Origin: Thermoplasmata archaeon
Lineage (GTDB): Archaea; Thermoplasmatota; Thermoplasmata; Lutacidiplasmatales; UBA184
DNA: 64,000 nucleotides
Assembly: GCA_027306505.1 (NCBI GenBank)
Contig: DAHUZP010000017.1
Coordinates: 47,244-111,243, forward strand
Direction: 5' to 3'
Positions 9,907 through 59,650 of the stretch are shown piece by piece. Every line of letters begins with the position of its first letter. The first letter of the stretch is position 1. The notes under the pieces are model-generated. The model was not told the origin of the DNA and searched no databases. It saw only the letters and a program-made list of their open reading frames with translations. A program made the translations under genes and the position numbers.

Positions 9907-9916
9907 GACCGAACCC

Positions 9917-20814: not shown

Positions 20815-20840
20815 AGATCCCAGTCCGAAGGTGTGCATCG

Positions 20841-21656: not shown

Positions 21657-21755
21657 GACCTCCGAGGCGGGAGAAGGTCGTCGCAGGTCTAGCCATCGAA
21701 AAGACAGGTAGTTCGGAAGGTCCACTTCGCATCGAAAGGAGGAGAAAGAGCGACC

Positions 21756-22955: not shown

Positions 22956-23002
22956 GCATACGCTCCAGCGGGTCCGTGGTCGGAACGGGGTGAACGCGCG
23001 AG

Positions 23003-30596: not shown

Positions 30597-33404
30597 ATGG
30601 GAGACACGGAAGTCGCGGGGCAGGGGGGCGATCCCTCCGGGGAGCGGCAGAAGGCGCGACGGCCCTCGGCAGAAGCGTCGCGCAACGCAGGGATGGCGGA
30701 GAGTGCCAACGGGAGGGAGCGCCCCTCGAGGTCTTCCGAGTCCTCCGAGTCCTCCGGCGCCTTCCTGGTCGTGCTGCTCCTCGCCCTGGCGGTCCTCGCC
30801 GGGCTGCTCGACCTCCTGACGTTCCCCTCGAGCCTGCTCGGGCCCACCGAGGTCCTCCTCATCGCGGCCGTAGCCCTCGTGGTCCTTGTCCTCGTACTGT
30901 TCCGCAGCTCCTACCTGGTCCAGCCCTTCGAGGTGGCCTACGCCTTGAGGGGGACCGGTCCCGGCGCGCGGCGGCTGGACCCGGGATGGAGCCTGGTGAG
31001 CCCCTTCTCCAAGGTCTACCGGGTGGACCGGCGCACCCAGGTCTTGGAGGTCGAGACCAAGTTGGGGATCACCAAGGACAAGGTGCCGGTCCGCGTCAGG
31101 GCCTCCCTGCGCTTCAAGGTGGACCGGGGGGCTTTCGCGGCCCTCGGCGTCCCGGACTACAGGGAGGCCACCGTGCGCGCCACCGAGGGCGCATTGCTGC
31201 TTCTCCTAGGGACCAAGGACCTGGCGGAGATCGAGGCGGAACGCCCGGCCCTCAACAGCGCCCTCGCGGAACGAGTATCGAAGGACGCGGCCGGATGGGG
31301 CGTACGGGTCTCGGCGGTCGAGCTGCTCGAGGTCGACCCCGGTCCCTCCGTGCTCCAGGCGATGAGCGTGGAGGCGGCGGCCCTGCGCCAGCACCGTGCC
31401 GAGCTGCTGCGGGTGGAGGACGAGCGCCAGAACCGGCTCCTCCAGGCCCTCGAGGTGGAGGAGACCGCGGCCCGGCAGCGAAGGGCGGAGATCCTCCGGG
31501 CGGATGGTCAGAGGCGCTCCCATCTCCTCCTGTCGGAGGGCGAGATGCGATCGAGGCTCCTCCAGGCCGAGGGGGAGCGGCTCGCCGGCCTCTTGGAAGC
31601 GATTGGGCACGCCCAGAGGCTCCAGCTGCGCGCTGCGTCGGCGGACAGCCCCTCGTCGGAGATCTACCGTCTCCTGGGACCGGACCCGGAGAACACCATG
31701 GCCCTGCGTCAGGCGAACCTCACTCTGCTTCCGAGGAGGGTCTCGATGCTGCACGAGGAGTTCTCCAGGCCTCTCGTGCCGTTGGAGGAGCCGTTCCTGT
31801 TCGACACCACCTCGGGGGAGTACCCTGACCTGTCCGAGCCCACCGGGGAGGAGGCGGCCCCGGTCCCAGGAGAGGGCACGGCGCTGGGCGACCTTCTCCC
31901 GAGCCCCTCCCCCACCATGGAGGGGGCCGCGACCCCTGCCTCCGGGCTCGCCGCCGCCCCCGCCGCCAACGCCGCCCCCGCGGTCGCGGGCCTTGCCCCG
32001 GGCGCCTCGATTTCGAGCAAAGTGCTGACCACTGATGGGGTGACCGTCAACTACTACCTCGGCGGGGCCGGAGGCCCTGGAGAAGGCGAGCCACCCGTCC
32101 CGTCGAAGAGCCCTCCGCCGAACCTTCCCCCGATCATCATCCCCGGTGGGTTCTCCGGACAGTCGAACACGAAGATCATCTCGACGGACAAGGTCACCCT
32201 CAACTACGGCATGGGTGGCAAGGGCCCGGGCGGGGAGCCCGAGGAAGCGCACCCGGGTCCCCAGCGGGCGTGCGTGCGTTGCGGCGTCCTCAACCCTGCG
32301 AACTACCGCTTCTGCGTGCACTGCGGGGCCCCGCCGCCCCCTGACGTGGTCCACGAGCCGGTGGGGGTGCCCATGCCCCTACCTCCGCCCCCGGTCTGGA
32401 TCCTCGCCCGTCCCCCGACGGCGAGCCCCCTGGACTGGGAGAAGCTCTCCCCTTCGCGCCAGCGACGTTTGCGTGACGTGGTGGGCCATCTCCACCAAGC
32501 CTCTGCGATGGCGCTCGTCTGGACGGCCCTCGGGTTCATTCCCCTCACCTTCTCGGTCATCGGTCTCCTTTCCCCGATGGGTGGCTGCGGGAGCATCCTC
32601 GGCCTTCTGGGCTGCGCCACCGCCGGTACCGCAGGGTACCTGGAACAGTGGGTCCTCCTCCTCGCCTACTCCCTAGGTTGGATCACGGTCAACGCCGCCA
32701 TCTTCGTGCGGACCCCGAGCTGGATCTCGAACACGGAGGCCCTCTACCTTCCGTTCGTGAAGGAACAGGTGACGGTCTGGGGCGTCCTCTCCTTCCTCTT
32801 CGGGCTCGTCGCGTCGGCCTTCCTCCTCAGGGTCCGAATGGACCTCACCCCGCTCATCTCGAGCTGCCCGCACTGCTACACGACCAATCCCCCCACGCAG
32901 CAATACTGCAGGAAGTGCGGGCGGCAGGTCTTCCACGTGGCCCCCGCGCGCTCCGCCCGTCCGGACCTTCCCCCCTACCCGGCCTCGGGGCGGGCCGGGG
33001 GAGAGCGGCGCCCATGGGGGCGAACGTCGAGAGTGGCCGCGGGCCTCCTCATCGGGCTGGTGGTCCTCCTCGGGGTCTTGGCCGTGGTCCCGTTGAACAA
33101 CCAGGGCCAGACGGTGAGCCTCCTCTGCGGAGGGGCCACGGCGGCCACGGGAGCGGTCTATCTGCCCTCCCAGGCGCAGGTCCAGCTCCACTGGACCGTG
33201 GGCGGACAGAATGGGACGGTCCACCTCCATGTCTACGATGGCCCGGTCCAGAGCGCAGACCTGGTCTACTCGGGCACGGGCTCGAGCGGCACCGTGCAGT
33301 TCGGGTCGAACGGGGGGACCTACCTCTTGACCTGTTCCACGATCTCCGGGGCTTGGACCGACCCCGTGAACGTCTCGACCGAATATCCCACGCCCATCCT
33401 CTGA
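30597..33404 (+). CDS. Large SPFH/band-7 (stomatin/HflK-like) membrane protein with two zinc ribbons and a C-terminal ectodomain
   Basis: N-terminal TM, canonical SPFH core (...RVRASLRFKVDR...WGVRVSAVELLEVDP...), coiled-coil, two ~25-aa repeats (K.L.TD.VT.NY), CVRCG...CVHCG and CPHCY...CRKCG ribbons, 4 TM segments, and a terminal domain paralogous to 29722. Confidence 0.75.
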   Translation: MGDTEVAGQGGDPSGERQKARRPSAEASRNAGMAESANGRERPSRSSESSESSGAFLVVLLLALAVLAGLLDLLTFPSSLLGPTEVLLIAAVALVVLVLVLFRSSYLVQPFEVAYALRGTGPGARRLDPGWSLVSPFSKVYRVDRRTQVLEVETKLGITKDKVPVRVRASLRFKVDRGAFAALGVPDYREATVRATEGALLLLLGTKDLAEIEAERPALNSALAERVSKDAAGWGVRVSAVELLEVDPGPSVLQAMSVEAAALRQHRAELLRVEDERQNRLLQALEVEETAARQRRAEILRADGQRRSHLLLSEGEMRSRLLQAEGERLAGLLEAIGHAQRLQLRAASADSPSSEIYRLLGPDPENTMALRQANLTLLPRRVSMLHEEFSRPLVPLEEPFLFDTTSGEYPDLSEPTGEEAAPVPGEGTALGDLLPSPSPTMEGAATPASGLAAAPAANAAPAVAGLAPGASISSKVLTTDGVTVNYYLGGAGGPGEGEPPVPSKSPPPNLPPIIIPGGFSGQSNTKIISTDKVTLNYGMGGKGPGGEPEEAHPGPQRACVRCGVLNPANYRFCVHCGAPPPPDVVHEPVGVPMPLPPPPVWILARPPTASPLDWEKLSPSRQRRLRDVVGHLHQASAMALVWTALGFIPLTFSVIGLLSPMGGCGSILGLLGCATAGTAGYLEQWVLLLAYSLGWITVNAAIFVRTPSWISNTEALYLPFVKEQVTVWGVLSFLFGLVASAFLLRVRMDLTPLISSCPHCYTTNPPTQQYCRKCGRQVFHVAPARSARPDLPPYPASGRAGGERRPWGRTSRVAAGLLIGLVVLLGVLAVVPLNNQGQTVSLLCGGATAATGAVYLPSQAQVQLHWTVGGQNGTVHLHVYDGPVQSADLVYSGTGSSGTVQFGSNGGTYLLTCSTISGAWTDPVNVSTEYPTPIL

Positions 33405-35323: not shown

Positions 35324-35653
35324 GGTCCGTTCGGAGTGGTATGGGAGGTCCGCCCTGATTAATGATTCCCGTACTTGACCGGGGACCTCCGCTTCACCTC
35401 GCATCCCACCGCGCCCGCTGAAGGCCCTGTCCGTTCCCCCTCCGCGCTTCCCTCCCGCCCTCCCGGCCCTCTCCCCAGCGCGGACGGCCCGCCCTCGGCC
35501 CTGAGGGCGGGGACCGTCGTCGGACAGGGCCCGGCTCTGCGGACCCCGAAATGGGCGACCCGGTGGGGATGGGGGTCGGGACGCGGGGAGGGGGATGTTC
35601 CGCGGGCCGGGTTCGTCCCGGACCGCCTTTGAACCCCCGAGGTGCAAGCACCA

Positions 35654-35718
35654 CAGGATTAGCAATCCTGCGCCGTACCGGGCTGGGCCATCCCCGCGCA
35701 GGCGGCGCGACCTGCGCG
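35654..35718. promoter_or_regulatory. Two hairpin-forming inverted repeats in the 530-bp divergent intergenic region
   Basis: CAGGATT-AGC-AATCCTG (perfect 7-bp arms) and CGCGCAGG-N8-CCTGCGCG, followed by ATTTAAG. Confidence 0.35.
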
Positions 35719-35855
35719 CGCCATTTAAGCGTGGTGGCGCCAGCGATCCCTCACCTTCCGCCGGCCGTCCACCCCGGCAGGAAACGAGCGAGGCCGCCGC
35801 CCGGCCCGGGTGCACTTATCTACCCACGGCCATCGGGCCGGCCGAGGGCGTGAAC

Positions 35856-36821
35856 ATGATCTACGTTCGGAAGGCCGGGGTCGTTGGTGCGGGGACCATG
35901 GGGGCTGCCATCGCCGAGGTGCTGGCCTTCAACGAGGTCAACGTCGTGCTCAAGGAGGTCAACGAGGAGCTCCTGGCGAAGGGCATGGCCCGGGTCAAGG
36001 GGATCGTGGACGAGCTCGTCGCCTTCCACGAGGGCCGGGCGGACAAGGAGATCGCCCGCATCGAGGAGATGGGGCTCAAGCTCAACGAGGAGCAGAAGGG
36101 CGCCATACGCCAGAAGCTCAAGCCCAAGGTCGACCGCAAGCGAGGGGACGCGATCATCGCCCGGGTGAAGGGCACCACCAGTTGGGACGACTTCAAGGAC
36201 GTCGACCTCGTGGTCGAGGCGGCCTTCGAGAAGGAGTCCGTCAAGAAGGAGGTCTTCGCGGCGCTCGACCGCAGCCTTCCCGACCACGCGATCATCGCCT
36301 CCAACACCTCTTCGCTCTCGATCACCCAGCTCGCGAAGGGACTGAAGCACTGCGGGAACACGCTCATCGCCCACTTCTTCAACCCTCCCTACACGCTGCC
36401 CTTGGTCGAGATCGTCGCGGGCGTGGACACCCGCGAGGACGTGGTCAGCGACGTGATGGAGTTCTTCCAGGGGCTGCGCAACCACCGGTTCCCGATGGTG
36501 CCCATCCGCGTGAAGGAGGTCCCCGGCTTCCTCGTGAACCGCCTGCTCATCCCGATGCTCAACGAGGCCTGCTTCGCCCTCGAGGAGGGCGTCGCGAGCG
36601 CCCGGGACATGGACATCGCGCTCAAGGCCGGGGCCGGGAACCCCATGGGTCCCCTGGAGCTCGCCGACATGATCGGGCTCGACGTCTGCCTCGACGTCGC
36701 GGAGATCCTGCACCGGGAGTACGGCGACCCCAAGTACCGGCCCGCGATCGCGCTCAAGAGGCTGGTCGCGGCGGGTCACCTCGGCCGCAAGACCGGCCGC
36801 GGCTTCTACGAGTACACCTGA
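35856..36821 (+). CDS. 3-hydroxyacyl-CoA (3-hydroxybutyryl-CoA) dehydrogenase
   Basis: Rossmann GVVGAGTMGAAIA. ...NTSSLSI..., ...HFFNPP... and C-terminal ...GRKTGRGFYEY typical of HBD/FadB. SD GAGGGCG upstream. Confidence 0.85.
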   Translation: MIYVRKAGVVGAGTMGAAIAEVLAFNEVNVVLKEVNEELLAKGMARVKGIVDELVAFHEGRADKEIARIEEMGLKLNEEQKGAIRQKLKPKVDRKRGDAIIARVKGTTSWDDFKDVDLVVEAAFEKESVKKEVFAALDRSLPDHAIIASNTSSLSITQLAKGLKHCGNTLIAHFFNPPYTLPLVEIVAGVDTREDVVSDVMEFFQGLRNHRFPMVPIRVKEVPGFLVNRLLIPMLNEACFALEEGVASARDMDIALKAGAGNPMGPLELADMIGLDVCLDVAEILHREYGDPKYRPAIALKRLVAAGHLGRKTGRGFYEYT

Positions 36822-43248: not shown

Positions 43249-44409
43249 ATGTGGTTCTTCACCTCACCGAAGATCGTCTTCGGCTCAGGCGCAATCGAGT
43301 TCCTGGCCTCGTTGCCCACCAAGAAGGCCCTCATCGTCTGCGACAAGTTCCTCTCCGAGAAGCGGGCCTACCAGCCCGTCGCGGAGCAGCTCACCAAGTC
43401 CGGGGCCCAGGTGAAGGTCTTCGGCGAGGTCGAGCCCGAGCCTCACATCGCGACGGTGGAGGCCGGGGTGAAACTCGCGAGGGAGTTCGAGCCCGACATG
43501 GTGGTCGGTTTCGGCGGAGGCAGCGCGATGGACATGGCGAAGGCCATCTACGCGCTCTACGAGCGACCCGACCTCACCATCTACGACCTCACCCCCATCG
43601 TGGAGCTCCACCTGGGACAGAAGGCCCGCCTGGTCCAGGTGCCTACGACCAGCGGGACCGGCAGCGAGACGACCTGGGCCACCATCATCACCGAGGGGGA
43701 GGGTGGGCGCAAGCTCGAGCTCGCCCATCGCGACCTGGTCGCGGACTGGGCGGTGCTGGACCCGCTCTTCCCGGGCTCCATGCCTCCCCGCCTCACCGCG
43801 GACACCGGGGCGGACGCCCTCGCCCACTCCATCGAGTCGATCTCCTCGGAGTGGTCGAACCCCTTCTCTGACGCCCTCGGGGTGAAGGCCGTGGACACCA
43901 TCTTCCGGTTCCTGCCGAAGGCGGTGAAGGGCGACCCGGTCCCCTCGGAGGTACGGGAGGAGCTCCACCTCGCGGCGGCCATGGCGGGGCTCTCCTTCGG
44001 GAACGCCCAGGTGGGCATCGGCCACGCGCTGGGCCACGCTCTGGGGTCGGTCTTCCACGTCCCGCACGGACGGACCGTGGGGCTCTTCCTGCCCTACCAC
44101 ATCGAGTACAACTTCAACGCCGCGCGCCCGAAGCTCGCCCGGCTCGGACCCGTCCTGGGCGAGTCCACCGTGCAGTCCGGCCGTGACCTCGCCGGGAAGG
44201 TCCGCTCGCTCTGGGACCAGATCGGTATGGCCCGGACCATTCCCGAGGCGGCGAAGATCACCGAGAAGGAGTTTGAGGAGAAGCTGCCCGAGCTCGTCGC
44301 CCGAGCGGACTCCTCCACCTGCGTCATCTCCAACGCCCGCGTCCCCAGCTCGAAGGAGCTGGAGCGGATCTTCCGGGCGGCCTGGAGCGGGAGCCCGATC
44401 GACTTCTGA
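43249..44409 (+). CDS. Iron-containing (group III) alcohol dehydrogenase
   Basis: ...GFGGGSAMD.AKA..., ...GTGSE.T..A.I..., ...H..E... metal-binding pattern. 386 aa. Confidence 0.85.
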   Translation: MWFFTSPKIVFGSGAIEFLASLPTKKALIVCDKFLSEKRAYQPVAEQLTKSGAQVKVFGEVEPEPHIATVEAGVKLAREFEPDMVVGFGGGSAMDMAKAIYALYERPDLTIYDLTPIVELHLGQKARLVQVPTTSGTGSETTWATIITEGEGGRKLELAHRDLVADWAVLDPLFPGSMPPRLTADTGADALAHSIESISSEWSNPFSDALGVKAVDTIFRFLPKAVKGDPVPSEVREELHLAAAMAGLSFGNAQVGIGHALGHALGSVFHVPHGRTVGLFLPYHIEYNFNAARPKLARLGPVLGESTVQSGRDLAGKVRSLWDQIGMARTIPEAAKITEKEFEEKLPELVARADSSTCVISNARVPSSKELERIFRAAWSGSPIDF

Positions 44410-44485
44410 ACCGGGCGACCGGTCCGGCCCGAGCGAGCGAACCAGCGCGACGAACGAACAAGCAGAACCGAGGGGAGAAGAGAGG

Positions 44486-46111
44486 ATGGCCGCACCGGAG
44501 AGCGCCTTGAGCGAGAGCATGGGAACGAACGCGCCCCGGACGTGGAAGGCCTTCATCGGCGGTGAGTGGCGCGACGCATCCAACGGCGCGACGACCACCC
44601 TTCGCGACCCGGCGACCGGCGAGCTCCTCGGAACGGTCCCCCAGTGCACGAAGGAGGACGCGAAGGCCGCGGTGGACGCGGCGAGGGAGGCCTTCGACAA
44701 GGGCCCCTGGCCCGAGACCAGGCCGAAGGACCGGGCTGAGGTCCTTCTCAAGGTCGCGGAGCTCATCACCACGCGGGCGGAGATGTTCGCCCTCCTGGAG
44801 ACCCGCAACGCCGGGAAGCCCATCCGGCAGAGCACGTTCTTCGACCTGGGGCTCGCGGCCGAGCACATGCGCTACTTCTCCGAGCTCACGACCTCGATCC
44901 GCTGGCGCCAGAAGGTGGAACAGCCCGACTACGAAGGGAGCTACGGGGTCATCCGCAAGGAGCCGATGGGGGTCTGCGCGGGGATCACGCCGTGGAACCT
45001 ACCGCTCCTCATGGCGGTCTGGAAGGCGGGCCCGGCCCTCGCCGCGGGGAACACCTGCGTTCTGAAGCCCGCCTCGCTCACGCCCTGCACGACGATCGAG
45101 CTCGCCCGCCTGTTCGAGGAAGCGGGCCTCCCCAAGGGGGCCCTCTCGGTGGTCACCGGCTCCGGAGAGGAGGTGGGGAACGTCCTGCTCACCCATCCGG
45201 GGGTGGACAAGGTGAGCTTCACCGGCTCCACCGAGGTGGGCCGGACGGTCCTCGCGAAGAGCTCCTCCACGGTGAAGCGCACGACGATGGAGCTCGGCGG
45301 GAAGAGCGCGAACGTGATCCTTCCCGAGGCGGACCTGGACAAGGCGATCGACGGGTCGCTCTTCGGCATCTTCCTGCATGCGGGACAGCTCTGTGAGTCG
45401 GGGAGCCGCCTGCTCGTCCCGGCGAAGGAGCAGGAACGCATCGTCCAGAAGCTGGTCGAGAAGGCGCGGAGGATCCGCATCGGCCTGACCCAGGACTACA
45501 ACACCGACATGGGACCGGTCATCAGCGACGGCCAGCGGACCCGGATCGAGGGGTACATCCAGTACGGGATCGATCAGGGCGCGAAGCTCTCCTTCGGCGG
45601 TAACCGGCCGGACCGGCCGGAGCTCCGCAAGGGCTTCTTCCTTCGACCCACGATCTTCTCCGGCGTCACCCCTGACATGCGGATCGCTCAGGAGGAGATC
45701 TTCGGACCGGTGCTCACCGTCCTTCCCTACGACAATCTGGACCAGGCCGTGGAGATCGCGAACAGCACCATCTTCGGCCTCGCGGCGGCCGTGTGGTGCC
45801 GGAACGAGAAGAAGGCGGAGCGGGTCGCGGAGCGGCTCCGGGCCGGGACCGTGTGGATCAACGACTACCACCTGCTCACCTGCCACGCCCCTCGCGGAGG
45901 GTACAAGCAGTCCGGGATCGGTCGCGAGCTGGGAGAGCACGCGCTCGAGGACTACCTCGAGACGAAGCATCTCTTCTTCGGCCAGGACTCCCCGCTCATC
46001 CCCATCGCCCGTGGCCTCGTCGTGGCCCCCGCCCCCGAGGGGGGGCCCGGGAGCCCGACCAGCCCCTCCTCCCCCCCTTCCACGTCGGGGGAGGGCGGCG
46101 CGTCCAGTTAG
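44486..46111 (+). CDS. Aldehyde dehydrogenase (NAD(P)+)
   Basis: ...ELGGKSANVI... (catalytic Glu), ...GQLCESGSRLLV... (Cys), ...FTGSTEVGR.... Unusual S/P-rich C-terminal tail of about 25 aa. Confidence 0.9.
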   Translation: MAAPESALSESMGTNAPRTWKAFIGGEWRDASNGATTTLRDPATGELLGTVPQCTKEDAKAAVDAAREAFDKGPWPETRPKDRAEVLLKVAELITTRAEMFALLETRNAGKPIRQSTFFDLGLAAEHMRYFSELTTSIRWRQKVEQPDYEGSYGVIRKEPMGVCAGITPWNLPLLMAVWKAGPALAAGNTCVLKPASLTPCTTIELARLFEEAGLPKGALSVVTGSGEEVGNVLLTHPGVDKVSFTGSTEVGRTVLAKSSSTVKRTTMELGGKSANVILPEADLDKAIDGSLFGIFLHAGQLCESGSRLLVPAKEQERIVQKLVEKARRIRIGLTQDYNTDMGPVISDGQRTRIEGYIQYGIDQGAKLSFGGNRPDRPELRKGFFLRPTIFSGVTPDMRIAQEEIFGPVLTVLPYDNLDQAVEIANSTIFGLAAAVWCRNEKKAERVAERLRAGTVWINDYHLLTCHAPRGGYKQSGIGRELGEHALEDYLETKHLFFGQDSPLIPIARGLVVAPAPEGGPGSPTSPSSPPSTSGEGGASS

Positions 46112-46117
46112 GACCGC

Positions 46118-46615
46118 ATGGCGCGCATCGAGACCGAGGTCGTCATCCGGGCCCCGCTGGACCGGGTCTTCTGGTTCCTCGCGAACGGTGACCACGCTCC
46201 GGAGTGGTCGGTCTCGGTGAAGGCAGCGCACCACGAGACCCCGCCCCCGATCCGCGTCGGGAGCCGCCTCGCCGTGAAGGCGCAGGCCGGTCGGAGGGAG
46301 TACTCCTGGACCCAGGAGGTCACGCGCTGGGAGCTCCTCCGGGAGTTCGAGGACCGTCTCGTACCGGGCGAGGGGCCCTTCCGCTCCTTCCTGGACTGGG
46401 GAAAGTTCGAGCCGACCCCCGAGGGGGTACGGTTCACCTTCGGCCTCGACTACCATCTCCCCGGGGGCCCCCTGGGCTGGCTCATCGACCGCCTCCTCGT
46501 CGCACCGCGGGTGGAGCACGACCAGCACCTCTCGCTGCAGAAGGCGCGCTCCATGCTCGAAGGCGGCCAGGTCACGGACGAGATCGTCCCCAGGTGGGCA
46601 CGGGGGAAGGCGTGA
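46118..46615 (+). CDS. SRPBCC (START/polyketide-cyclase-like) ligand-binding protein
   Basis: MARIETEVVIRAPLDRVFWFLAN..W... is the typical N-terminus of this superfamily. 165 aa. Confidence 0.65.
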   Translation: MARIETEVVIRAPLDRVFWFLANGDHAPEWSVSVKAAHHETPPPIRVGSRLAVKAQAGRREYSWTQEVTRWELLREFEDRLVPGEGPFRSFLDWGKFEPTPEGVRFTFGLDYHLPGGPLGWLIDRLLVAPRVEHDQHLSLQKARSMLEGGQVTDEIVPRWARGKA

Positions 46616-48588
46616 GCGCCGCCGCTCCCTCGCCCGTCCCCGACGTGAACCCCCGCGACCGGGCGATCCTCGCCGCCGTCGCTCGCGGGCTCGTGCCCTC
46701 CGGAGGGCCCTTCGCCCCCGGCGCCGATGAGGTGGGCGTCGCCGACCTCATCCTCGCTATGGGCAAGGAGATGGACATGGTGAGCAGCGCGGTCGTGCGC
46801 GCGCTCGTCGCGAGCCTCGAGTTCGCCGCCGTCTTTCGCGGTCCGGGCCGGCGCCTTTCCTCGCTCCCTCCCTTGGAGGCGGAGCGGTTCCTCGCGGACG
46901 CGGTCCACCAAGGGAAGGTACGACCCATGGCGAGCTGGCTGCTCCGCCTCTTGGTGGAGGCCAACTACGTCTCCGCCCCCCCGGTCCGGGCCTACCTCTC
47001 GATCGACGACGAGCCGATGTACACGGAGCCTCCCGTGCCCCCCGCCCGGCCACCGGTGCCCACCCTCACCTACCCCTCCCTCAGCCCGGGCACGGAGCTC
47101 GACTGCGACGCATGCGTCATCGGGAGCGGGGCCGGCGGGGCGCCCGCGGCGGCCCTCCTCGCGGAGGCGGGATGGAAGGTCCTCGTGGTGGAGGAGGGGC
47201 CCGCGGTCTCGCGGCAGGACTTCCACGGCTCTGCGATCGGAAGGATCGGGCGCTACTACCGTTCCAACGGGATCTTCTTCACCATCGGCAAGCCCCTGGT
47301 CCAGATCTCCTACGCGAGCTCCGTCGGCGGGACGACGGTGTTCAACTCCGGCACCTGCTTCGAACCTCCCGCGTCGACGCTCGAGAAGTGGGCGAAGGAC
47401 TCCGGGGTCGCGGACCTGGGGCCGGAGGGTCTCGCGCCCTACCTCGCCCGCGTGAAGAAGTTCCTCCAGGTGGGGCCTTCCCGAGCCGACATCATCGGGG
47501 GCAACGGCGAGGCCCTACGGCTGGGCGCGGAGCGGCTGGGCGGGGGCCTCCGACACGGGGTGATCCCCCGCCCCGCCCCGGGCTGCCGCGGCATGGACCT
47601 CTGCGTGGTGGGTTGCCCCACCGATGCGAAGCGGTCGATGCAGATCTCCTACCTCCCTCGAGCCCTCGCCTCGGGGGCGCGGATCCTCTCCCGTGTCCGC
47701 GTGGACCGCGTGCGGGCCGGTCCCGGTGGTCCCGCGCGCTGGATCGTGCAGGGCGCCCTATTGGACCCGGTCACCCGCCGACCGGTGGGTCGGGTCCAGG
47801 TGCGCTGCCGCCACGTGGTCGTCGCGGCCGGCGCCCTCGCGACGCCCTACCTCTTGCCGGCGGTGGGTCCCCGCGCCTCCCGAGCCCACCAGGGCCGACA
47901 TCTCCGCGTGCACCCCTCCCTGGACGTGGCGGGGGACTTCCCGAGGGAGATCCGGGGCTGGCGCGGTGTGCTCCAGTCCTACTACGTGGACGACCATGAC
48001 CACGGCGTGCTGCTCGAAGCGACCTTCCACCCGCGGGGGCTGCTCTCGACCTCGGGGCTTACCCCCTACACGGGGGCCCGCTACAAGGAGTTCCTCGAGC
48101 GGCTCCCCCACCTCGCCCTCATCGGCGCGCTCATCATGGACCAGAGCGAGGGCCGCCTGGGGCCCTTCTTCGCCGGTCGGCCCTGGGTGTTCTACGACAT
48201 GCTCCCGGAGGACCTCCGCAAGGCCGGTCGGGCGATCGCGCTATCGGGCCGTCTGCTGTTCGCAGCAGGCGCTGAGCGCGTCTTCGTCCCTGTGCACGGG
48301 GGACGGGAGGTGAGACGCGTGGAGGACCTCGACGTGTTCGAGAACGAACCGATCGCCCCGGAGGCGTTGCACCTCCTCGCTTTCCACCCGCTGGGCACGG
48401 CGAGGATGGCCCGCGAGCCGGAGATCGGGGCGGTGGACCCGGACGGGACCGTCTGGGGCGCCCCCGGGCTTCATGTCTCGGACGCGAGCCTGCTCCCCGG
48501 GTCCCCGAGCGTCAATCCCCAGATCTCGATCATGGCGATCGCGGAACGGTGCGCGGAGCGCTGGGCGAAGCAGGGGGTCCGTGCATGA
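46612..48588 (+). CDS. GMC-family FAD oxidoreductase (long-chain alcohol oxidase/dehydrogenase-like)
   Basis: The GTG start overlaps the upstream stop (GTGA). About 150-aa N-terminal extension, then DACVIGSGAGGAPAAALLAEAGWKVLVVEEG. C-terminal ...FHPLGTARM... segment. Confidence 0.75.
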   Translation: MSAAAPSPVPDVNPRDRAILAAVARGLVPSGGPFAPGADEVGVADLILAMGKEMDMVSSAVVRALVASLEFAAVFRGPGRRLSSLPPLEAERFLADAVHQGKVRPMASWLLRLLVEANYVSAPPVRAYLSIDDEPMYTEPPVPPARPPVPTLTYPSLSPGTELDCDACVIGSGAGGAPAAALLAEAGWKVLVVEEGPAVSRQDFHGSAIGRIGRYYRSNGIFFTIGKPLVQISYASSVGGTTVFNSGTCFEPPASTLEKWAKDSGVADLGPEGLAPYLARVKKFLQVGPSRADIIGGNGEALRLGAERLGGGLRHGVIPRPAPGCRGMDLCVVGCPTDAKRSMQISYLPRALASGARILSRVRVDRVRAGPGGPARWIVQGALLDPVTRRPVGRVQVRCRHVVVAAGALATPYLLPAVGPRASRAHQGRHLRVHPSLDVAGDFPREIRGWRGVLQSYYVDDHDHGVLLEATFHPRGLLSTSGLTPYTGARYKEFLERLPHLALIGALIMDQSEGRLGPFFAGRPWVFYDMLPEDLRKAGRAIALSGRLLFAAGAERVFVPVHGGREVRRVEDLDVFENEPIAPEALHLLAFHPLGTARMAREPEIGAVDPDGTVWGAPGLHVSDASLLPGSPSVNPQISIMAIAERCAERWAKQGVRA

Positions 48589-50706: not shown

Positions 50707-51150
50707 ATGCAGGAGACCCCCCAGGAGCTCTCGGCCAGGGCCATCCTGCCCGCGCTGCGAGGGCTCATCGCGCGGGAGCTCGTGAAGGGTCACGAGTTCA
50801 CCCACCTGAGGGCGGCGAAGCTCCTGGGGCTGAGCCGGCCCGCGGTCACCCTCTACGCCCGGGGCCACAGGGGCCGTGCGATCGACCTTCGACATCGCGA
50901 CGACGTTCTGCTCATCGTCCGAGACCTGGCGGATGGGCTCGCGAACGGGGAGCTGGACCCGAGGGCCCTCATGGTCCGTCTCGACTCCGCCGCCTCCTAC
51001 GTGCTCCGCAAGGGCTACGCCTGCGCGCTCCACCAGGAGATCGACCCCGGGCTCAAGGGTTCGGGGTGCGACCTCTGCATGACTTCCCCCCGACCTTGCG
51101 CCTACTTCCACCCATGGCGTCCGACCGGAGCGCCGCGGGGGATGGCCTGA
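50707..51150 (+). CDS. Putative HTH transcriptional regulator with C-terminal Cys cluster
   Basis: HTH-like ...LRAAKLLGLSRPAVTLYARG.... C-terminal CALHQ...GSGCDLC. TTTTAACTGG box about 30 nt upstream. Confidence 0.45.
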   Translation: MQETPQELSARAILPALRGLIARELVKGHEFTHLRAAKLLGLSRPAVTLYARGHRGRAIDLRHRDDVLLIVRDLADGLANGELDPRALMVRLDSAASYVLRKGYACALHQEIDPGLKGSGCDLCMTSPRPCAYFHPWRPTGAPRGMA

Positions 51151-52789: not shown

Positions 52790-53608
52790 CTACGAGGTGG
52801 GGGCCGAGTCAGGCTTGGGACCTGGGGTCGGGTCGGGAGGCGGGGGTTTCCCCATGAGGTGGATCCCGCACTCCCGCTTCTCGAAGCCGGCCCATCGGCC
52901 GGCCCTTTCGTGCTCGCCGGGACGGATCTTGCGCGTGCAAGGGGCACAGCCGATGCTCCCGTAGCCCTGTTCCCAGAGCGGGTGACGAGGGAGATGGTGC
53001 ACCGTGAGGTACTGTTCCACCTCCGCGCGGTTCCAGAGGACGAGCGGGTTGATCTTGAACACCCCGCGGCCCCCGGGGTCCAGCTCCTGCCACTCGACGA
53101 GCGGGGTCTCGCGCCGACCCTCGTGCTGGTCCCGGCGCAGCCCGGTGAGCCAGGCGTCGTAGGAGAGGAGCGCCCGCCGCAGAGGGGCGACCTTCCTCCG
53201 CTGACAGCAGGTGTCGGGATCGCGTGCGAAGAGGTCCTTCCCGAGTTCCTGGTCCTGCCCCGCGACGCTCTGCTCGGCGTGGAGGTTGACCACGTTGAGC
53301 CCCCACTCGGCGACGAGGCGGTCCCTGAAGCCGAGGGTCTCGGGGAAGTGGTAACCGGTCTCGAGGAAGAGCACCGGGACGTCGCGGCGTATCTTGCGCA
53401 GATGATCGAGGACCACCAGCCCCTCCTTGCCGAAGCTACTGCCGGCCGCGAGCCGGTCACCGAAGAGGGCGTCGACGCGGCGGAGCAGCTCGGTGAGGTT
53501 GAGCGGAAGGAGCTCCTGCGAGAGCGCCGCCGCCCGGGCCCTGCCCCGGTCCCCCTCAAAGGGGGACGGGCGGACCTCCTGCGATATGGACGAGCCTGAC
53601 GACCCCAT
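52790..53608 (-). CDS. cysH: Phosphoadenosine phosphosulfate (PAPS/APS) reductase CysH family
   Basis: ...LVVLDHL...PVLFLETGYHFPET..., ...CC.RRKV.PL... and C-terminal ...YGSIGCAPCT... match CysH. Start set at the Met after the shared TATA. Confidence 0.8.
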   Translation of the reverse strand: MGSSGSSISQEVRPSPFEGDRGRARAAALSQELLPLNLTELLRRVDALFGDRLAAGSSFGKEGLVVLDHLRKIRRDVPVLFLETGYHFPETLGFRDRLVAEWGLNVVNLHAEQSVAGQDQELGKDLFARDPDTCCQRRKVAPLRRALLSYDAWLTGLRRDQHEGRRETPLVEWQELDPGGRGVFKINPLVLWNRAEVEQYLTVHHLPRHPLWEQGYGSIGCAPCTRKIRPGEHERAGRWAGFEKRECGIHLMGKPPPPDPTPGPKPDSAPTS

Positions 53609-53649
53609 CTTCCAGGACCCGGACCGACATCCTGGGAACCACCGTGTTC

Positions 53650-53690
53650 TCCATATATACGCCAAGATGTGGACGTAATACGACATAATG
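53650..53690. promoter_or_regulatory. Bidirectional AT-rich promoter (ATATATA ... TAATAC) between cysH and the comA-like gene
   Basis: The only AT-rich 40 bp in this region. The palindromic TATA sits about 30 nt from the + strand ATG (53688) and about 45 nt from the cysH ATG (53608). Confidence 0.5.
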
Positions 53691-54734
53691 TGCGCAGAAC
53701 TGGCGACTGGCACCGCCCCCTCCGGGGCGTCCCTCCGCCGGAAAGGCTCGCCCCCGAGCAGCTCCCTACCGTTCTTCCCCGCGCGACCCTCGGAGCTCCC
53801 ACGACGGGCCGGACAGGGGCTCACCCACGTCCTCGACCGTCTCGCCCCGATGGACGAGGGGTCGCTCGGCCTCCTCGCTCCATATGTCGACATCGTCAAG
53901 ATCGGTTGGGGCCTCCCTCTCCTCCTACCGCGAGAGACGCTGCGTCGTCGTATCGCGAGCTTCCAGCGGTGGGGCTGGAAGGTGTCCACGGGCGGCACCC
54001 TCCTCGAGCTCGCGATGATCCGCGGCGAGCGCGACCGAGCTCTCGACGAGGCGAAGGCGCTGGGGTTCGACCTCATCGAGGTCAGCGAAGGGGTGATCGA
54101 CCTCACCCACGAGCAGGTGGAATCGGCGGTCGCCTCGGCCCGCTCCCGAGGGTTCGAGGTCCTGATCGAGGTGGGGAAGAAGGACCCGCAGCACCAGTAC
54201 TCGCTGCGCGAGACGCTCGAGCGGGTCTCCCATGCGCGCCGGCTCCGGCCGCTCAAGGTCATCCTGGAGAGCCGCGAGAGCGGTCGCGCGGTGGGCATCT
54301 ACGATCCCGACGGGGCGATCAAGTGGGAGTGGGTGCACGCGCTCGTGGCCTCCCATCCTCCCGAGGACCTCCTCTTCGAGGCCCCGCTGGAGAGCCAGCA
54401 GCTGGGGCTCCTCGTCGACCTGGGCTGCGAGGTGAACCTCGGGAACGTCGCTTTCGACTCCGTCGCCCCTCTCGCCTCGCAGCGGCTCGGCCTTCGAGGG
54501 GACACCTTCGGGCTCTCTCGCCGACACCGGGCGGTCTCGGGGTCCCCTGCGGCGAAGTTCGTCTACTATCTGCTCGAGAACCACCGGGAGCTCGACCAGG
54601 GGGACCTCGTCCGCCTCTCGCGGCTCCCCCGGCGGACCGTCCAGAGCTCGCTCGAGGAGCTCAAGCGCCAGGGCCACGTCCAAGAGACGGTGAGCTTCAC
54701 GGACGCCCGACGACGCGAGTACCGCCTCACGTAG
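53688..54734 (+). CDS. comA: Phosphosulfolactate synthase (ComA) homolog fused to a C-terminal winged-helix domain
   Basis: ...PRRAGQGLTHVLDRL...YVDIVKIGWG... matches the ComA N-terminal signature. Last ~70 aa (...KFVYYLLENHRELDQGDLVRLSRLPRRTVQSSLEELKRQGHV...) look like a MarR/wHTH. Confidence 0.65.
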   Translation: MCAELATGTAPSGASLRRKGSPPSSSLPFFPARPSELPRRAGQGLTHVLDRLAPMDEGSLGLLAPYVDIVKIGWGLPLLLPRETLRRRIASFQRWGWKVSTGGTLLELAMIRGERDRALDEAKALGFDLIEVSEGVIDLTHEQVESAVASARSRGFEVLIEVGKKDPQHQYSLRETLERVSHARRLRPLKVILESRESGRAVGIYDPDGAIKWEWVHALVASHPPEDLLFEAPLESQQLGLLVDLGCEVNLGNVAFDSVAPLASQRLGLRGDTFGLSRRHRAVSGSPAAKFVYYLLENHRELDQGDLVRLSRLPRRTVQSSLEELKRQGHVQETVSFTDARRREYRLT

Positions 54735-56141: not shown

Positions 56142-59100
56142 CTACCTCGACCCGGGCGGGGGCCCTCCGGGACCGTACCGGGACCCGAACGGATCCGGGG
56201 CGACCTCGTCCGTCGCCCTCGGGGCGGGGCCGGCCGAACTCGCGGGTAGGGGCGCGCTCGGCGCTAGTGGCGAGGGTTCCCAGCCGGCAGGGGCCCCTGT
56301 GGCTCCGGGGCCGGGGTCTCCCACGGCGCCGGACCGTCTCCTCAAGAGCACGAGGGCGAGGGCGACACCGACCACCGCGACGACCCCCAGGAGGATCCAC
56401 CAGAGGTCAGGACCGATCCCTGCCGACGTGGACGCGGGAGCGCTCGTGGCGGCACCCACCGAGACCGTGAAGCTCGTCCTGCCCTGCGCCCCCTGGGAGT
56501 CGTTGACGAAGAGGACCACGGTGTAGTTGCCCACCGCCGAGTAGGCGTGGGTGGGGGCGGCGAGGGAGCTCAGGGAGCCGTCCCCGAAGTGCCAGGAGTA
56601 GATGTAGCTCCCGGAGCCTCCCTGCACGTTCGCGGTGAAGTCGATGGTGGCGCCCGCGGTGGCGGGGTTGGGGGTAGCCTGCGCGTTGACGCTCAGCACG
56701 CCGCTGGGGGCACCCACCACGATGGTGGTGGACGCCTGCGCGGTGGCGCCCGTCGAGTCCGTGACCGTGAGCGAGACGGTGAAGCTCCCGGCGCTGGAGT
56801 AGGTGTGCGAGGGGTCCTGGAGCGTGCTCGTGCTCTGGTCCCCGAAGGACCAGGCCCAGGTATAGCCGGGGGACCCTCCCTGGGCCGACCCGGTGAAGGT
56901 GACCTGGAGCGGAGCCGTCCCTGTGGCGGGGTTCACGGCGATGGCGGCGGAGAGCGTGGAGACCGTGCTCACCGTGATCGACGCGGAGGTCGTGCTAGCG
57001 GTGCCTCCGTTCGAGTCCGTCACCGCGATCGTCGCGGTGTAGGTGCCGGGGGCAGTGGGCGTGCAGCTCACGGAGAGCGCGTTCGCGCCGGTGCACCCGA
57101 GCGCCGGAGCGGAGAAGGTCCACAGGTAGGAGTCGCCGCCCGAGCCCGGTGAGGTGAGCTGGGAGGCGAGCGCGAAGGCCTTCCCGACGGTGGGGGCGGT
57201 GCTGCTGGGCGAAGGGGCTGAGACGCTGGGGAGGGCGTAGACCTGGAAGGCGCTGCTCGAGGCGGAGGCCGTCGCTCCCTGGGCATCGGTGACCTTGAGC
57301 GTGAGGGTGTAGCTGCCGGCGGCGGTCGGCACGCAGCTCACCGGGTATGCCCCCGAGGAGGGGCATCCGAGCCCTGTCGCCGGGGCGGTGGTCCAGCTGT
57401 ACGTGTAGGGGGTCGTGCCCCCGGTCACCGAGGCGGACCAGCTCACGGACTGGCCCACGTCCACGCTACCGGCAGGCGTCGGGGTGGGGGCGCTCACGGT
57501 GGGGACCCCCGCGGTCACTTGCACGGAGGCGGAGGTGTTGCTCCCGGTCCCACCGTTGGAGTCCTTCACCGTCGCGGTCGCCGTGTAACCACCTGCTGCG
57601 GTGGGCGTGCAGGTGTAGGTGGTCGATGTGCTGGCGGTGCAGCCGGCGGTGGAGGAGGGCGAAGCGGACCAGGTGTACGTGTCACCCCCGGAGCCCGGAA
57701 GCCCGGTCTGGGTGGTGAACGTGACGCTCTGGCCCAGCGATATCGAGGTAGAGGAGGGGGAGGGGATCGACGTGGTAGGGTCCGGGTAGACCGGAAGAGC
57801 GGCGGAGGTCGCCGAGGCCGTGAGCCCCCCGCTGTCGGTCACCGTGACCTGGACCGTGTAGCTCCCCGAGGCGGAAGCGGTGCACGTGGTGGACGGGGTC
57901 GTCGTGGCGGCCGTGCAGGCGAGGCCGCTCGCGGGGCTCGCGGTCCAGGCGTAGCCGGTGTAGGTACCCGAGCCGCCGGTGGCGGTCGTGCTGAAGGAGA
58001 CCGTCTGTCCCACGTCCACCGAGGTCGCGGAGGCGGTGGGAGCGCTCACCGACAGGCCCCCTCCCGAGGTGCAGGGGGCGGAGGTGCTCACATTGAGCGT
58101 CGCCGCGGCCGTGATCGTGCACATGCCCATGTCCACGCTGGTGGTCGAGTTGTCCCAGACGTGGTAGGTCCCGGGAACGAGGGTGAGCGTCGCGTCGCCG
58201 TTCGTGTAGCCCCAGTCCTGGTGTCCCACGGCGACGCGCCCGGTCGTCGTCCCAGGGGCCCACAACTGCAGCGTGCCCACCTGCCCCAACGTGTAGGTGG
58301 GGTTCTCGAAGGCCTCGCGCGTGGTGCCGTTCATCTGGACGGAGAAGGGGGTGCCGGAGCCGTCGTTGGAGAAGACAGACTGGTCGGAGGAGATCGCCTC
58401 CGCGGTGTCATCGCCCGCGTTCCACGACGCGGGCACGGCCTGGTAGTTGTGACCGTTCCAGAAGTCGAGGCTGGTCTGGATGTTGGTGGGGCCCGCGTTG
58501 GTGGTGGAGGCCCCTCCGCCGGGCCCTCCGATGGTGAGCTCCGCGTTCTCAAAGAGCCCGGTCGGGTTCATGCTGAAGCCGTCGACGAAGAAGCCGCGGA
58601 ACGTGCTGACGCGCTTCGCGAAGGTGAAGGTCACGGTGTCGTAGCAGCTGAGGACGGTCTTCGCGTCCGCGTAGCAGAAGCGGACCACCGGCTCCCCGTT
58701 CGCGTTGAGGAAGGTCCGGACCTCGACCTGGAAGTAGCTCGGGCCCGTGAGCGTGTCGCAAACCCCGCTCTTCCCTCCGGCGCAGCCTGAGTTCGCGGAG
58801 GCGGGCCAGATGTACACCCCTCCGGAAAGCGACCCGTTGCCGGAGAGGGTGCTCGACGCGACGTTGCAGGTCGAGGTGGTGCAGCTGAAGTTCCAGATGT
58901 TGTCGGCGTAGCTCATCTGCAGGACGTTCGGGGTGGAGTCCACCGGTACGGGGACGTCCTGGATCCAGTAGGAGTAGTTCTTCCCCCCGTTGATGAAATT
59001 AAGGACCACGTTCAGTTGGACCGAGAAGCTAGCCCCGGAGCCGGAACTGTCGATGTAGGCCTGGGTCCAGGAGAAGTTGCCGAGGAACCGGGTGGTCCCG

Positions 59101-59456
59101 TAGGCGTAGGGCGTGGGGTGTCCGTAGCCCGACACCCCGTAGTCCGCGATCCCCATCGGGGCCGGCTCGGAGGGGTAGCCGCATCCCGGGACCACGGGGG
59201 TGGTCGTGCAGTTCCCGATCGCGGAGACGATACGGGGCGGGAAGAGCGGGGCGTGCGAGCTGGAAGGGCTACCGGTCGTGGCGGGGGGAGCTGGAGCCGC
59301 AGAGGGTCCGACCGGGGCCGGGAGCCCGGGGCCGCCCACGAGGGTCGAAGCGTACACGACGCCCGCGGTCGCTCCGGAGAGGACCATCACCAGCACGGAG
59401 AGCCAGAGGAGCGTTCGGCGCTGGGAGCCAGCGGCGGTTCGGGCGGGGCCGACCAT
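56142..59456 (-). CDS. Large PKD-domain surface (S-layer-like) glycoprotein with C-terminal TM anchor
   Basis: Signal peptide. Many N-x-S/T sites. At least 5 PKD-like repeats (...YTYSWT..., ...WAWSFGDQST..., ...YSWHFGDGS...). C-terminal LWWILLGVVAVVGVALALVLL anchor followed by a basic tail. Confidence 0.75.
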   Translation of the reverse strand: MVGPARTAAGSQRRTLLWLSVLVMVLSGATAGVVYASTLVGGPGLPAPVGPSAAPAPPATTGSPSSSHAPLFPPRIVSAIGNCTTTPVVPGCGYPSEPAPMGIADYGVSGYGHPTPYAYGTTRFLGNFSWTQAYIDSSGSGASFSVQLNVVLNFINGGKNYSYWIQDVPVPVDSTPNVLQMSYADNIWNFSCTTSTCNVASSTLSGNGSLSGGVYIWPASANSGCAGGKSGVCDTLTGPSYFQVEVRTFLNANGEPVVRFCYADAKTVLSCYDTVTFTFAKRVSTFRGFFVDGFSMNPTGLFENAELTIGGPGGGASTTNAGPTNIQTSLDFWNGHNYQAVPASWNAGDDTAEAISSDQSVFSNDGSGTPFSVQMNGTTREAFENPTYTLGQVGTLQLWAPGTTTGRVAVGHQDWGYTNGDATLTLVPGTYHVWDNSTTSVDMGMCTITAAATLNVSTSAPCTSGGGLSVSAPTASATSVDVGQTVSFSTTATGGSGTYTGYAWTASPASGLACTAATTTPSTTCTASASGSYTVQVTVTDSGGLTASATSAALPVYPDPTTSIPSPSSTSISLGQSVTFTTQTGLPGSGGDTYTWSASPSSTAGCTASTSTTYTCTPTAAGGYTATATVKDSNGGTGSNTSASVQVTAGVPTVSAPTPTPAGSVDVGQSVSWSASVTGGTTPYTYSWTTAPATGLGCPSSGAYPVSCVPTAAGSYTLTLKVTDAQGATASASSSAFQVYALPSVSAPSPSSTAPTVGKAFALASQLTSPGSGGDSYLWTFSAPALGCTGANALSVSCTPTAPGTYTATIAVTDSNGGTASTTSASITVSTVSTLSAAIAVNPATGTAPLQVTFTGSAQGGSPGYTWAWSFGDQSTSTLQDPSHTYSSAGSFTVSLTVTDSTGATAQASTTIVVGAPSGVLSVNAQATPNPATAGATIDFTANVQGGSGSYIYSWHFGDGSLSSLAAPTHAYSAVGNYTVVLFVNDSQGAQGRTSFTVSVGAATSAPASTSAGIGPDLWWILLGVVAVVGVALALVLLRRRSGAVGDPGPGATGAPAGWEPSPLAPSAPLPASSAGPAPRATDEVAPDPFGSRYGPGGPPPGSR

Positions 59457-59650
59457 GGTACACCAAAGCACGCGTGTGCTCCTGCCTCATACGTTTGGCG
59501 GTCCGGTGAACGCGCGCCGTCCCCCGAGGAGGAACGGGCGCCCCGCTAGCTGCTCTCGAAGGGACGGGACCCCTTCCAGGTGCGGGGGCGGCCTGCCCGT
59601 TCGGGAACCGCCTCCAGACCCTCGGCAGGGCTCCCCGTCGTGTCCACGAC

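Follow-up and report, generated by a model that had tools for sequence, protein, structure and literature searches.

The 64,000-nt stretch of contig DAHUZP010000017.1 analysed here (hereafter the window; assembly GCA_027306505.1, an uncultured soil archaeon of the class Thermoplasmata, order Lutacidiplasmatales) raises the question of why a phosphosulfolactate synthase, ComA, should carry a DNA-binding domain and what that domain may act on. The gene concerned, comA-wHTH, encodes a ComA barrel followed by a C-terminal winged helix-turn-helix (wHTH) and is divergent from cysH, the start codons of the two genes being 79 bp apart. The original prediction for this locus had described the two genes as arranged around a single ATATATA box, and had proposed that they act together in sulfite metabolism and that the fused domain serves in self-regulation or DNA tethering. 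At the level of sequence, the divergent genes, the single box and the fusion were all borne out, while the interpretation as a whole was partly supported. Position 52790, where the region originally described begins, is the stop codon of cysH on the minus strand. Analyses of related genomes indicated that the fusion is conserved and that its gene carries a gene-specific pseudo-palindrome at its own start, and together these make the protein a candidate autoregulated enzyme.

The ComA barrel and its winged helix

The 348-aa protein was 100% identical to a database entry (P0001), and ATG 53688 is the sole in-frame start, no other ATG, GTG or TTG being found from the upstream stop codon to the conserved THVLDR motif. 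Residues 42-272 matched the Pfam ComA family (PF02679; E 2.5e-61) with a score of 207.6 bits, as compared with a gathering score of 25.2, and profile positions 9-243 of 243 were covered. ComA of M. jannaschii (MjComA; PDB 1qwg) was matched at E 5e-47 with 38% identity. The AlphaFold model of the full protein had a predicted local distance difference test (pLDDT) value of 84.6, and its comparison with 1qwg in Foldseek gave a template modelling (TM) score of 0.90 and a root-mean-square deviation (rmsd) of 2.2 Å over 243 columns (E 9.8e-24), so that the (beta/alpha)8 barrel is superposable on that of the methanogen enzyme. The assignment of the N-terminal domain to the ComA-type TIM barrels, rather than to barrels of some other family, is upheld by the Pfam match and by this superposition. 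The N-terminal 23 residues were predicted by AlphaFold to be disordered; in the linker, residues 276-280 had pLDDT values below 50 and the sequence was variable across the ortholog alignment.

Alignment of 17 orthologs (55-75% identity) revealed that the ComA motifs GWG, GGT, IEVSEG, EVGKK, ESRESG, FEAP, QQ, NLGN and RGDTFG were all invariant. Residues E131 (in IEVSEG) and K165 (in EVGKK) were likewise invariant and were aligned with E103 and K137 of MjComA, reportedly the catalytic residues Glu103 and Lys137 of that enzyme (Wise et al. 2003). Because the conservation of the ComA motifs is perfect in Thermoplasmata, catalysis appears to be retained there, and in these archaea the barrel has most likely kept its phosphosulfolactate synthase activity.

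In the C-terminal region, residues 296-342 gave a match to Pfam MarR_2 of 22.9 bits, below the gathering score of 27, while stand-alone homologs of the same wHTH subfamily passed it with 30.3 and 32.9 bits. The topology predicted for residues 287-347 (AlphaFold/AF2) was H-b-H-H-b-b, with a recognition helix at residues 315-327 (RRTVQSSLEELKR) and a wing at residues 331-347. When the isolated winged helix was modelled with an alignment, the pLDDT rose to 94.4, and its fold matches in the PDB were to the MarR family (TMq 0.83-0.91, rmsd 0.7-1.4 Å, 17-29% identity). The top 50 PDB matches were essentially all MarR/SlyA-family proteins, among them YusO, AdcR, MepR, HpaR, MarR and BpsR, and several of the matched structures were solved bound to DNA. 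Fold, pLDDT and PDB matches thus agree on the MarR-like wHTH that had been proposed, and the models indicate that residues 287-347 form a genuine winged helix and not a chance sub-threshold match. The last 60 residues were the best conserved part of the protein in the 17-ortholog alignment, RLPRRTVQ and RRREYRL being near-invariant.

We then asked how widely the fusion is distributed. The wHTH was confirmed in all 17 aligned orthologs, and the top 80 genome loci matched through to the C-terminus, so the domain is by no means absent from the orthologs. The family comprises more than 120 protein clusters, whose recognition helix and wing hardly vary although overall identity is 55-75%; the best 120 database matches were all 301-405 aa long, mostly 326-336 aa, and the best matches derived from Thermoplasmata metagenome-assembled genomes, among them Lutacidiplasmatales and genomes from peat and soil samples. 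Named matches were annotated merely as "phosphosulfolactate synthase", and the domain databases flagged a wHTH (PF12802, PF09904 or PF13545) in a few family members. In a scan of one genome per species, 147 genomes carried a relative and the top 80 were all Thermoplasmata. The ComA-wHTH fusion is a family and no peculiarity of this locus.

A search with the 69-aa wHTH domain against 1.8 billion cluster representatives returned 103 matches. These included more ComA fusions, notably in a Nitrososphaeraceae cluster of 143 members and in a TARA marine protein, as well as many free-standing archaeal wHTH proteins of 73-100 aa and two NAD kinase-wHTH fusions. The latter (P0198 and P0235; PF01513/PF20143) carry a C-terminal wHTH of the same subfamily, PPSAKYVY…LPERTVRHAL…DTRQ..Y, and may represent a second fusion of an enzyme with this domain and a second bifunctional regulator.

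In a Nitrososphaeraceae locus (L088, 1630-8213) an ABC transporter, consisting of a permease, an ATPase and an NMT1 (SsuA/TauA-like) binding protein, has a ComA-wHTH paralog on either side, one of 328 aa and the other of 326 aa. Most ComA motifs have disappeared from the 326-aa paralog and from the marine protein, both of which kept the winged helix; GWG, GGT, EVGKK, ESRESG and RGDTFG are gone from the Nitrososphaeraceae and TARA relatives. Judged by these losses, the barrel of the degenerate relatives looks like a sensor or a pseudoenzyme. Since it is the winged helix that these relatives keep, the regulatory function would appear to be ancestral or at least primary; for a primary role in regulation, the position of the Nitrososphaeraceae proteins next to such a transporter is what one would expect.

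A gene-specific palindrome at the start of comA-wHTH

The 150 nt before the start codon were collected from 66 distinct loci and subjected to an unsupervised expectation-maximization (EM) motif search, and a second search was limited to the last 45 nt before the start codon. The motif ATTCCTGCGyrGGA was obtained de novo at -26 to -20 in the 66 upstream regions. Written as a family operator consensus, TTCCTGCGCAGAA, it had an upstream copy in 43 of the 66 loci, compared with 1.6% in controls; sites cited as consensus are ATTCCTGCGCAGGA in L064 and GATTCTGCGCAGAA in L018. Two-fold cross-validation returned the same consensus, and 19/33 and 13/32 of the held-out sites lay above the 99th percentile of control windows. 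The motif is pseudo-palindromic (TTCCTGC|GCAGAA), with 6 of 7 positions dyad-symmetric and the left half better conserved.

The motif was gene-specific. Among 1.35 million scanned positions 108 matches of at least 7.5 nats were found, of which 31 lay exactly at -26 to -20 (about 0.1 expected); the remaining 77 were elsewhere in the 1.35 Mb and few of them preceded open reading frames (ORFs), and a general promoter or initiator feature was rejected. An origin as an RNA hairpin or riboswitch-like element was likewise rejected as the principal explanation, as folding of the region from -30 to +30 in the 66 loci gave a mean z of +0.14 with 3% of the loci below -2. No RNA covariation around the motif was visible by eye.

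The EM promoter motif upstream of the orthologs, RGGTTTTTATAC, combines an archaeal TATA box with a flank rich in purines on its 5' side. Most loci had it about 50 nt before the start codon; in L001, L086 and the window the distance was 33 nt. In the main class of loci 32-35 nt separate the centre of the palindrome from that of the TATA box, so that the palindrome falls on the predicted transcription start. The region of the transcription start is the typical site of action of archaeal repressors.

A second copy of the motif, situated among the first codons (MAxSAQK…) at +6 to +15, was identified in 18 of the 66 loci as against 1.6% in controls, preferentially where the upstream copy was weak. 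At least one copy, upstream and/or at +6 to +15, was present in 53 of the 66 loci. Matches were also seen near +830; these were explained by coding conservation of KFLYFLLE in helix 1. As such position weight matrix (PWM) matches inside genes can be driven by the protein sequence, a synonymous-codon test was run for the +6 site. At the second copy TCT made up 63% of the Ser codons, compared with 3% in the rest of the same ORFs, and CCT made up 67% of the Pro codons, compared with 10%. For the following Ala, GCC was used in 1 of 42 cases as compared with 46% elsewhere in the same ORFs. The motif is under selection at the nucleotide level, and its copy at +6 to +15 is held by rare synonymous codons.

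In the window the motif (TAATGTGCGCAGAACT) was matched on both strands, at 9.1 and 8.6 nats, and it overlaps ATG 53688. The promoter match in the comA direction, CTCCATATATAC (53649-53660), scored 6.7 nats against the family consensus. The transcription start of comA-wHTH predicted from this TATA box falls near 53682-53684, and the operator would then cover approximately +3 to +18; its distance from the TATA centre is 37 nt, compared with the family mode of 32-35 nt. Because ATG 53688 is the sole start and transcription is predicted to begin at 53682-53684, the mRNA would be effectively leaderless. The strongest match in the 64 kb (10.9 nats; 128 kb when both strands are counted) was a further site, TATCTTGCGCAGAT, which falls in the cysH coding sequence at a distance of about 300 bp from the start of comA; its significance is uncertain.

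A conserved, gene-specific, operator-like palindrome at the transcription and translation start of the gene itself lends new support to the idea of self-regulation, and suggests that the enzyme may also be a repressor of its own gene.

CysH and the surrounding genes

The product of cysH matched PF01507 (PAPS_reduct; E 2.3e-44) and scored 259 bits with NF002537, for which the cut-off is 154. It carries a Cys-Cys pair (…DTCCQRRK…), a Cys-x-x-Cys motif (…GCAPCT…) and ECGIH. Its best PDB match was CysH of M. tuberculosis (7lhr; E 1.5e-53), with TCC, CAPC and ECGIH aligned; its score with TIGR02055, the APS_reductase subfamily, was 198 and thus below 235. On these signatures CysH is a thioredoxin-dependent iron-sulfur (Fe-S) enzyme of the adenosine 5'-phosphosulfate (APS) reductase type rather than a classical 3'-phosphoadenosine 5'-phosphosulfate (PAPS) reductase. 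The designation "PAPS reductase" given originally is therefore right as a family name, although in view of the Fe-S signature and the 7lhr match it is probably wrong as to the substrate.

With respect to the shared control region, the cysH and comA ATGs of L001 are 22 nt and 27 nt, respectively, from its TATATA, as would suit a pair of leaderless transcripts that both originate at one symmetric box. The window has 48 nt between the TATA centre and the ATG of cysH, and a cysH leader of about 22 nt would follow from this. On this geometry, bidirectional use of the single TATA box is plausible. The positions of the features are given in Table 1.

Table 1. Positions of the main elements of the comA-wHTH locus and of the adjoining genes in the window
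Feature	Position	Strand	Remarks
comA-wHTH gene	53688..54734	plus	348 aa; predicted leaderless or nearly so
ComA TIM-barrel domain	53811..54512	plus	residues 42-275; PF02679
Flexible linker	54513..54545	plus	residues 276-286; low pLDDT, variable sequence
MarR-type winged helix-turn-helix	54546..54728	plus	residues 287-347
Operator-like pseudo-palindrome TAATGTGCGCAGAACT	53686..53701	no strand	overlaps comA start codon
ATATATA box	53653..53659	no strand	palindromic; sole TATA-like element in divergent intergenic region
Motif match TATCTTGCGCAGAT	53390..53403	plus	within cysH coding region
cysH	52790..53608	minus	272 aa; PAPS_reduct, Fe-S type, ECGIH catalytic motif, Pro-rich tail
Polytopic membrane protein, 405 aa	51411..52628	minus	no Pfam/NCBIfam match; function unassigned
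TusA-family sulfur carrier, 86 aa	51158..51418	plus	Pfam PF01206, E 3.6e-18
147-aa protein, HTH-like N-terminus, C-terminal cysteines	50707..51150	plus	directly upstream of tusA

The TusA-like carrier announced for the upstream region was confirmed by its Pfam match. For the 147-aa protein, originally described as a Cys-containing HTH regulator, one JGI name ("XRE family transcriptional regulator") and a distant PF01381 homolog agree with that description, while the protein itself had no Pfam or NCBIfam match and no PDB relative. It belongs to a narrow family with 14 matches and C-terminal cysteines of the form CDLC…C; one source calls the family "XRE family…thiamine biosynthesis regulator", and the pair formed by this gene and tusA is kept in L001 and L008. 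The 405-aa membrane protein is encoded downstream of cysH and co-directionally with it, has a Pro-rich N-terminus, and could be a transporter of a sulfur compound. Its 828 homologs, in Thermoplasmata and Nitrososphaerota, are named "hypothetical protein", and a few of them carry PF27245. On the other side, comA-wHTH is followed by purT.

The window has a base composition of 69.7% G+C and is of archaeal character, encoding Hjc and a Pelota/eRF1-like protein and carrying TATA-type promoters. A gene census was made by profile search of its approximately 27 larger ORFs. None of these was comB, comC, comDE, sat, a sulfite reductase gene or a methanogenesis gene, in line with the statement that the window shows no methanogen genes. 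Glyoxylate-shunt and beta-oxidation genes were present, a gene content such as aerobic heterotrophic archaea typically have. The genes for malate synthase and isocitrate lyase are adjacent (8176-11254, plus) and make up a complete glyoxylate shunt; a thiolase (26427-27746), a 3-hydroxyacyl-CoA dehydrogenase (35595-36821) and Fe-ADH, aldehyde dehydrogenase and GMC oxidoreductase genes (43249-48588) were also identified. Together these genes point to an aerobic heterotroph growing on fatty acids or alcohols.

Further genes of the window include an unusual concentration of membrane-associated zinc-ribbon (DZR) proteins, several of them clustered with SPFH/Band-7 proteins at 20736-24025 and 30597-33404 (plus). 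A recombinase of the phage integrase family (2112-3161, minus) lies about 3.7 kb from tRNA-Arg CCT (6898-6972, plus), the only tRNA gene in the window, and this neighbourhood may be the boundary of an integrated element. At 56142-59471 (minus) there is a gene for a Ser/Thr-rich surface protein of 1109 aa, which contains repeats of a PKD-like module and ends in a transmembrane anchor; L005 likewise has a PKD-type protein, at a distance of about 5.6 kb from its comA-wHTH gene.

Proposed mechanism, rival readings and known systems

The reading that we put forward, and to which we give about an even chance, is that the gene product is an autoregulated bifunctional enzyme and repressor, a so-called trigger enzyme. 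The TIM barrel would add sulfite to phosphoenolpyruvate (PEP) to give phosphosulfolactate, and the disordered linker of about 10 residues would tether it to the MarR-type winged helix. The latter would bind the pseudo-palindromic candidate operator, which coincides with the transcription start of the protein's own gene or follows it closely, and in many loci a second operator in the first codons. Occupancy of the operator would block recruitment of RNA polymerase, which is the usual mechanism of archaeal repressors, and DNA binding would be adjusted according to the ligand state of the barrel, the ligand being sulfite, PEP or phosphosulfolactate. In the window the ATATATA box would drive a near-leaderless transcript whose ATG is overlapped by the operator, and the divergent Fe-S APS reductase would supply the sulfite, with possible co-regulation through the shared 79-bp control region. 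Two properties that mark trigger enzymes were found, namely an enzyme and a DNA-binding domain in one polypeptide, conserved across orthologs, and a candidate operator at the promoter of the gene itself in the 53 loci counted above. The analyses establish what the two domains are, that their fusion is conserved, and that the motif exists, is specific, has a fixed place and is selected as nucleotide sequence; that this winged helix is what binds it, that the enzyme works, that a ligand controls it and that cysH is co-regulated are inferred.

A number of observations weigh against the trigger-enzyme reading. The association of the motif with genes for this wHTH is what links the two, and no copy of at least 6 nats was present in 13 of the 66 loci. 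In the AT-rich intergenic DNA of Nitrososphaeraceae a similar motif was not evident by eye, no PWM scan having been made there. The helices through which MarR proteins dimerise are absent, about 62 residues aligning to the centre of MarR proteins of 135-145 aa (TMt ~0.44), and MjComA is trimeric, reportedly according to the paper on 1qwg, which is awkward for an operator with dyad symmetry. The protein scored 205.2 bits with TIGR03849 (arch_ComA), short of the equivalog cut-off of 280, and by that profile it is a member of the ComA family without certified functional equivalence. No comB, comC or comDE gene and no bacterial xcb gene (xcbC1-E1) was found among the ORFs scanned in the window or in the 16-kb neighbourhoods of four relatives, so that the putative enzymatic product is without a visible sink. 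Nor did any downstream gene nearby support the suggestion, made in the original prediction, that ComA serves another sulfonate pathway. At the level of the neighbourhood, cysH was present within 6 kb of the fusion gene in 3 distinct loci of 80 (L001 = L009, L002 and L008), and the motif inside cysH had no counterpart of at least 6.5 nats within the cysH genes of L001 or L008.

The last two points bear on the central picture of the original prediction, in which CysH and ComA-wHTH form a dedicated, co-regulated module leading from APS through sulfite to phosphosulfolactate under a shared bidirectional promoter. The divergent genes around a single palindromic TATA box, the 22-nt and 27-nt distances in L001, the cluster of TusA, membrane protein and cysH, whose synteny is kept in L001 and L008, and the location within cysH of the strongest motif match in the window all speak for such a module. 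However, the arrangement p147-TusA / membrane protein-cysH / comA-wHTH / purT was restricted to these close relatives (~73% identity), and the neighbours inspected at other loci are unrelated, a phosphodiesterase and glycoside hydrolases in L003 and an ACT-domain protein and a tRNA-guanine transglycosylase in L005. The pairing with cysH is for this reason best taken as a recent, lineage-specific juxtaposition; conserved cysH-comA synteny was ruled out, and the view of the two genes as a conserved functional unit did not hold. The leader implied for cysH in the window and the lack of the cysH-internal motif in the relatives scanned also disagree with a shared module, which we regard as unlikely. 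The pairing nevertheless makes metabolic sense, as a producer of sulfite adjoins a consumer of it, although it does not define the family.

Two other readings each retain one half of the protein. The protein would be a pure regulator if the ComA barrel did no more than sense a ligand (sulfite, a sulfonate or PEP) and thereby govern the winged helix. The relatives of Nitrososphaeraceae and TARA, which lost the ComA motifs and kept the winged helix, agree with this, as do the pair of such paralogs flanking an SsuA/TauA-type ABC transporter, the lack of comB, comC and comDE near any locus examined, and the TIGR03849 shortfall; but the invariance of all ComA motifs in Thermoplasmata, with the residues aligned to E103 and K137 of MjComA among them, and the 38% identity to a characterised enzyme would be unexpected for a mere binding domain, and we judge a pure regulator distinctly unlikely. 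Conversely, the protein could be an enzyme only, its winged helix serving in oligomerisation or in contacts with protein or RNA, and the CTGCG motif being a promoter, initiator or 5'-untranslated element read by another factor. Winged helices with non-DNA roles exist, and such a protein would be compatible with the missing dimerisation helices, with a trimeric ComA as reported, and with a motif that is merely pseudo-palindromic and better conserved in its left half. The specificity of the motif for the gene, with few of the 77 matches elsewhere near gene starts, and the absence of an RNA-structure signal are against it; moreover, the recognition helix and basic wing are the best conserved part of the protein, and the stand-alone homologs are typical small archaeal MarR-like proteins. 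An enzyme-only function is in our opinion very unlikely.

The trigger-enzyme reading can be extended to the whole class, though only tentatively and in a form that is somewhat unlikely to be right in all its parts. ComA-wHTH would then be a hitherto unrecognised transcription factor and enzyme that responds to sulfite or sulfonate and is found class-wide in the Thermoplasmata of aerobic habit in soil, and the ammonia-oxidising Nitrososphaeraceae would have pseudoenzymes descended from it; ComA-wHTH itself would sense sulfite, PEP or phosphosulfolactate in its active site, repress itself through the palindrome at the transcription start, and feed a sulfonate pathway other than that of coenzyme M.

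If this were true, the few such pairs known in archaeal transcription would be joined by a widespread, sequence-defined pair of regulator and operator, from uncultured lineages with a high abundance in soil. The aerobic, non-methanogenic archaea concerned keep an apparently intact phosphosulfolactate synthase yet need no coenzyme M, and the use of its product becomes a concrete biochemical question. The graded series from an intact enzyme in Thermoplasmata to a degenerate barrel in Nitrososphaeraceae and marine relatives, with the same wHTH throughout, would illustrate the recruitment of an enzyme as a sensor domain. The public annotation "phosphosulfolactate synthase" overlooks the DNA-binding half and could be misread in metagenome surveys as potential for coenzyme M synthesis or methanogenesis.

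A literature search on phosphosulfolactate synthase with Thermoplasmata, Thaumarchaeota, helix-turn-helix and COG1809 returned no account of the fusion, its operator or its distribution, and the terms "sulfolactate", "PAPS", "cysH" and "coenzyme M" were absent from the Lutacidiplasmatales genome paper. Among known proteins, ComA of methanogens (M. jannaschii MJ0255, 1qwg) and YitD of B. subtilis (1u83) share the Pfam family and the TIM-barrel fold. The canonical ComA has about 250 aa and no DNA-binding domain, whereas the protein described here has 348 aa and a wHTH; and the methanogen enzyme works with ComB, ComC and ComDE toward coenzyme M, while here neither methanogenesis genes nor downstream com genes are in view.

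The fusion of an enzyme to a wHTH had been called unusual. Such fusions are indeed uncommon, but there is an archaeal precedent in RbkR, a riboflavin kinase with a winged helix that is autoregulated at its own promoter, its DNA binding being tuned by substrate and product, and that occurs in Thermoplasmata, including Thermoplasma, and in Thaumarchaeota (PMC5397151). ComA-wHTH resembles RbkR in that both join an enzyme of archaeal metabolism to a winged helix and both occur in Thermoplasmata and Thaumarchaeota; it differs in the enzyme, with no sequence relationship, and in that RbkR is experimentally validated and ComA-wHTH predicted. The RbkR regulon comprises the whole pathway, whereas here the motif was found only at the fusion gene itself. 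The winged helix of RbkR is said to be N-terminal, and that of ComA-wHTH is C-terminal.

Compared with MarR-family repressors (MarR, MepR, HpaR, AdcR), the winged-helix core superposes at approximately 1 Å rmsd, but the domain lacks the helices, N- and C-terminal, from which MarR proteins build their dimer and ligand pocket; it would fall to the ComA barrel to provide oligomerisation and sensing. The small stand-alone archaeal wHTH proteins of 73-100 aa (PSAK(F/L)VY...LPxRTV(R/Q)xAL...DAR..Y) and the NAD kinase-wHTH proteins belong to the same subfamily (38-55% identity) and differ in being free-standing or joined to another enzyme; they are uncharacterised. In the bacterial trigger enzymes BirA, PutA and NadR the catalytic or ligand state controls a fused DNA-binding domain that represses the protein's own pathway. 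The logic proposed for ComA-wHTH is the same, while the folds and domains are unrelated and the promoter architecture of the former is bacterial. What is new here is thus a variant of a known enzyme family and a candidate member of the trigger enzymes, rather than a categorically new mechanism.

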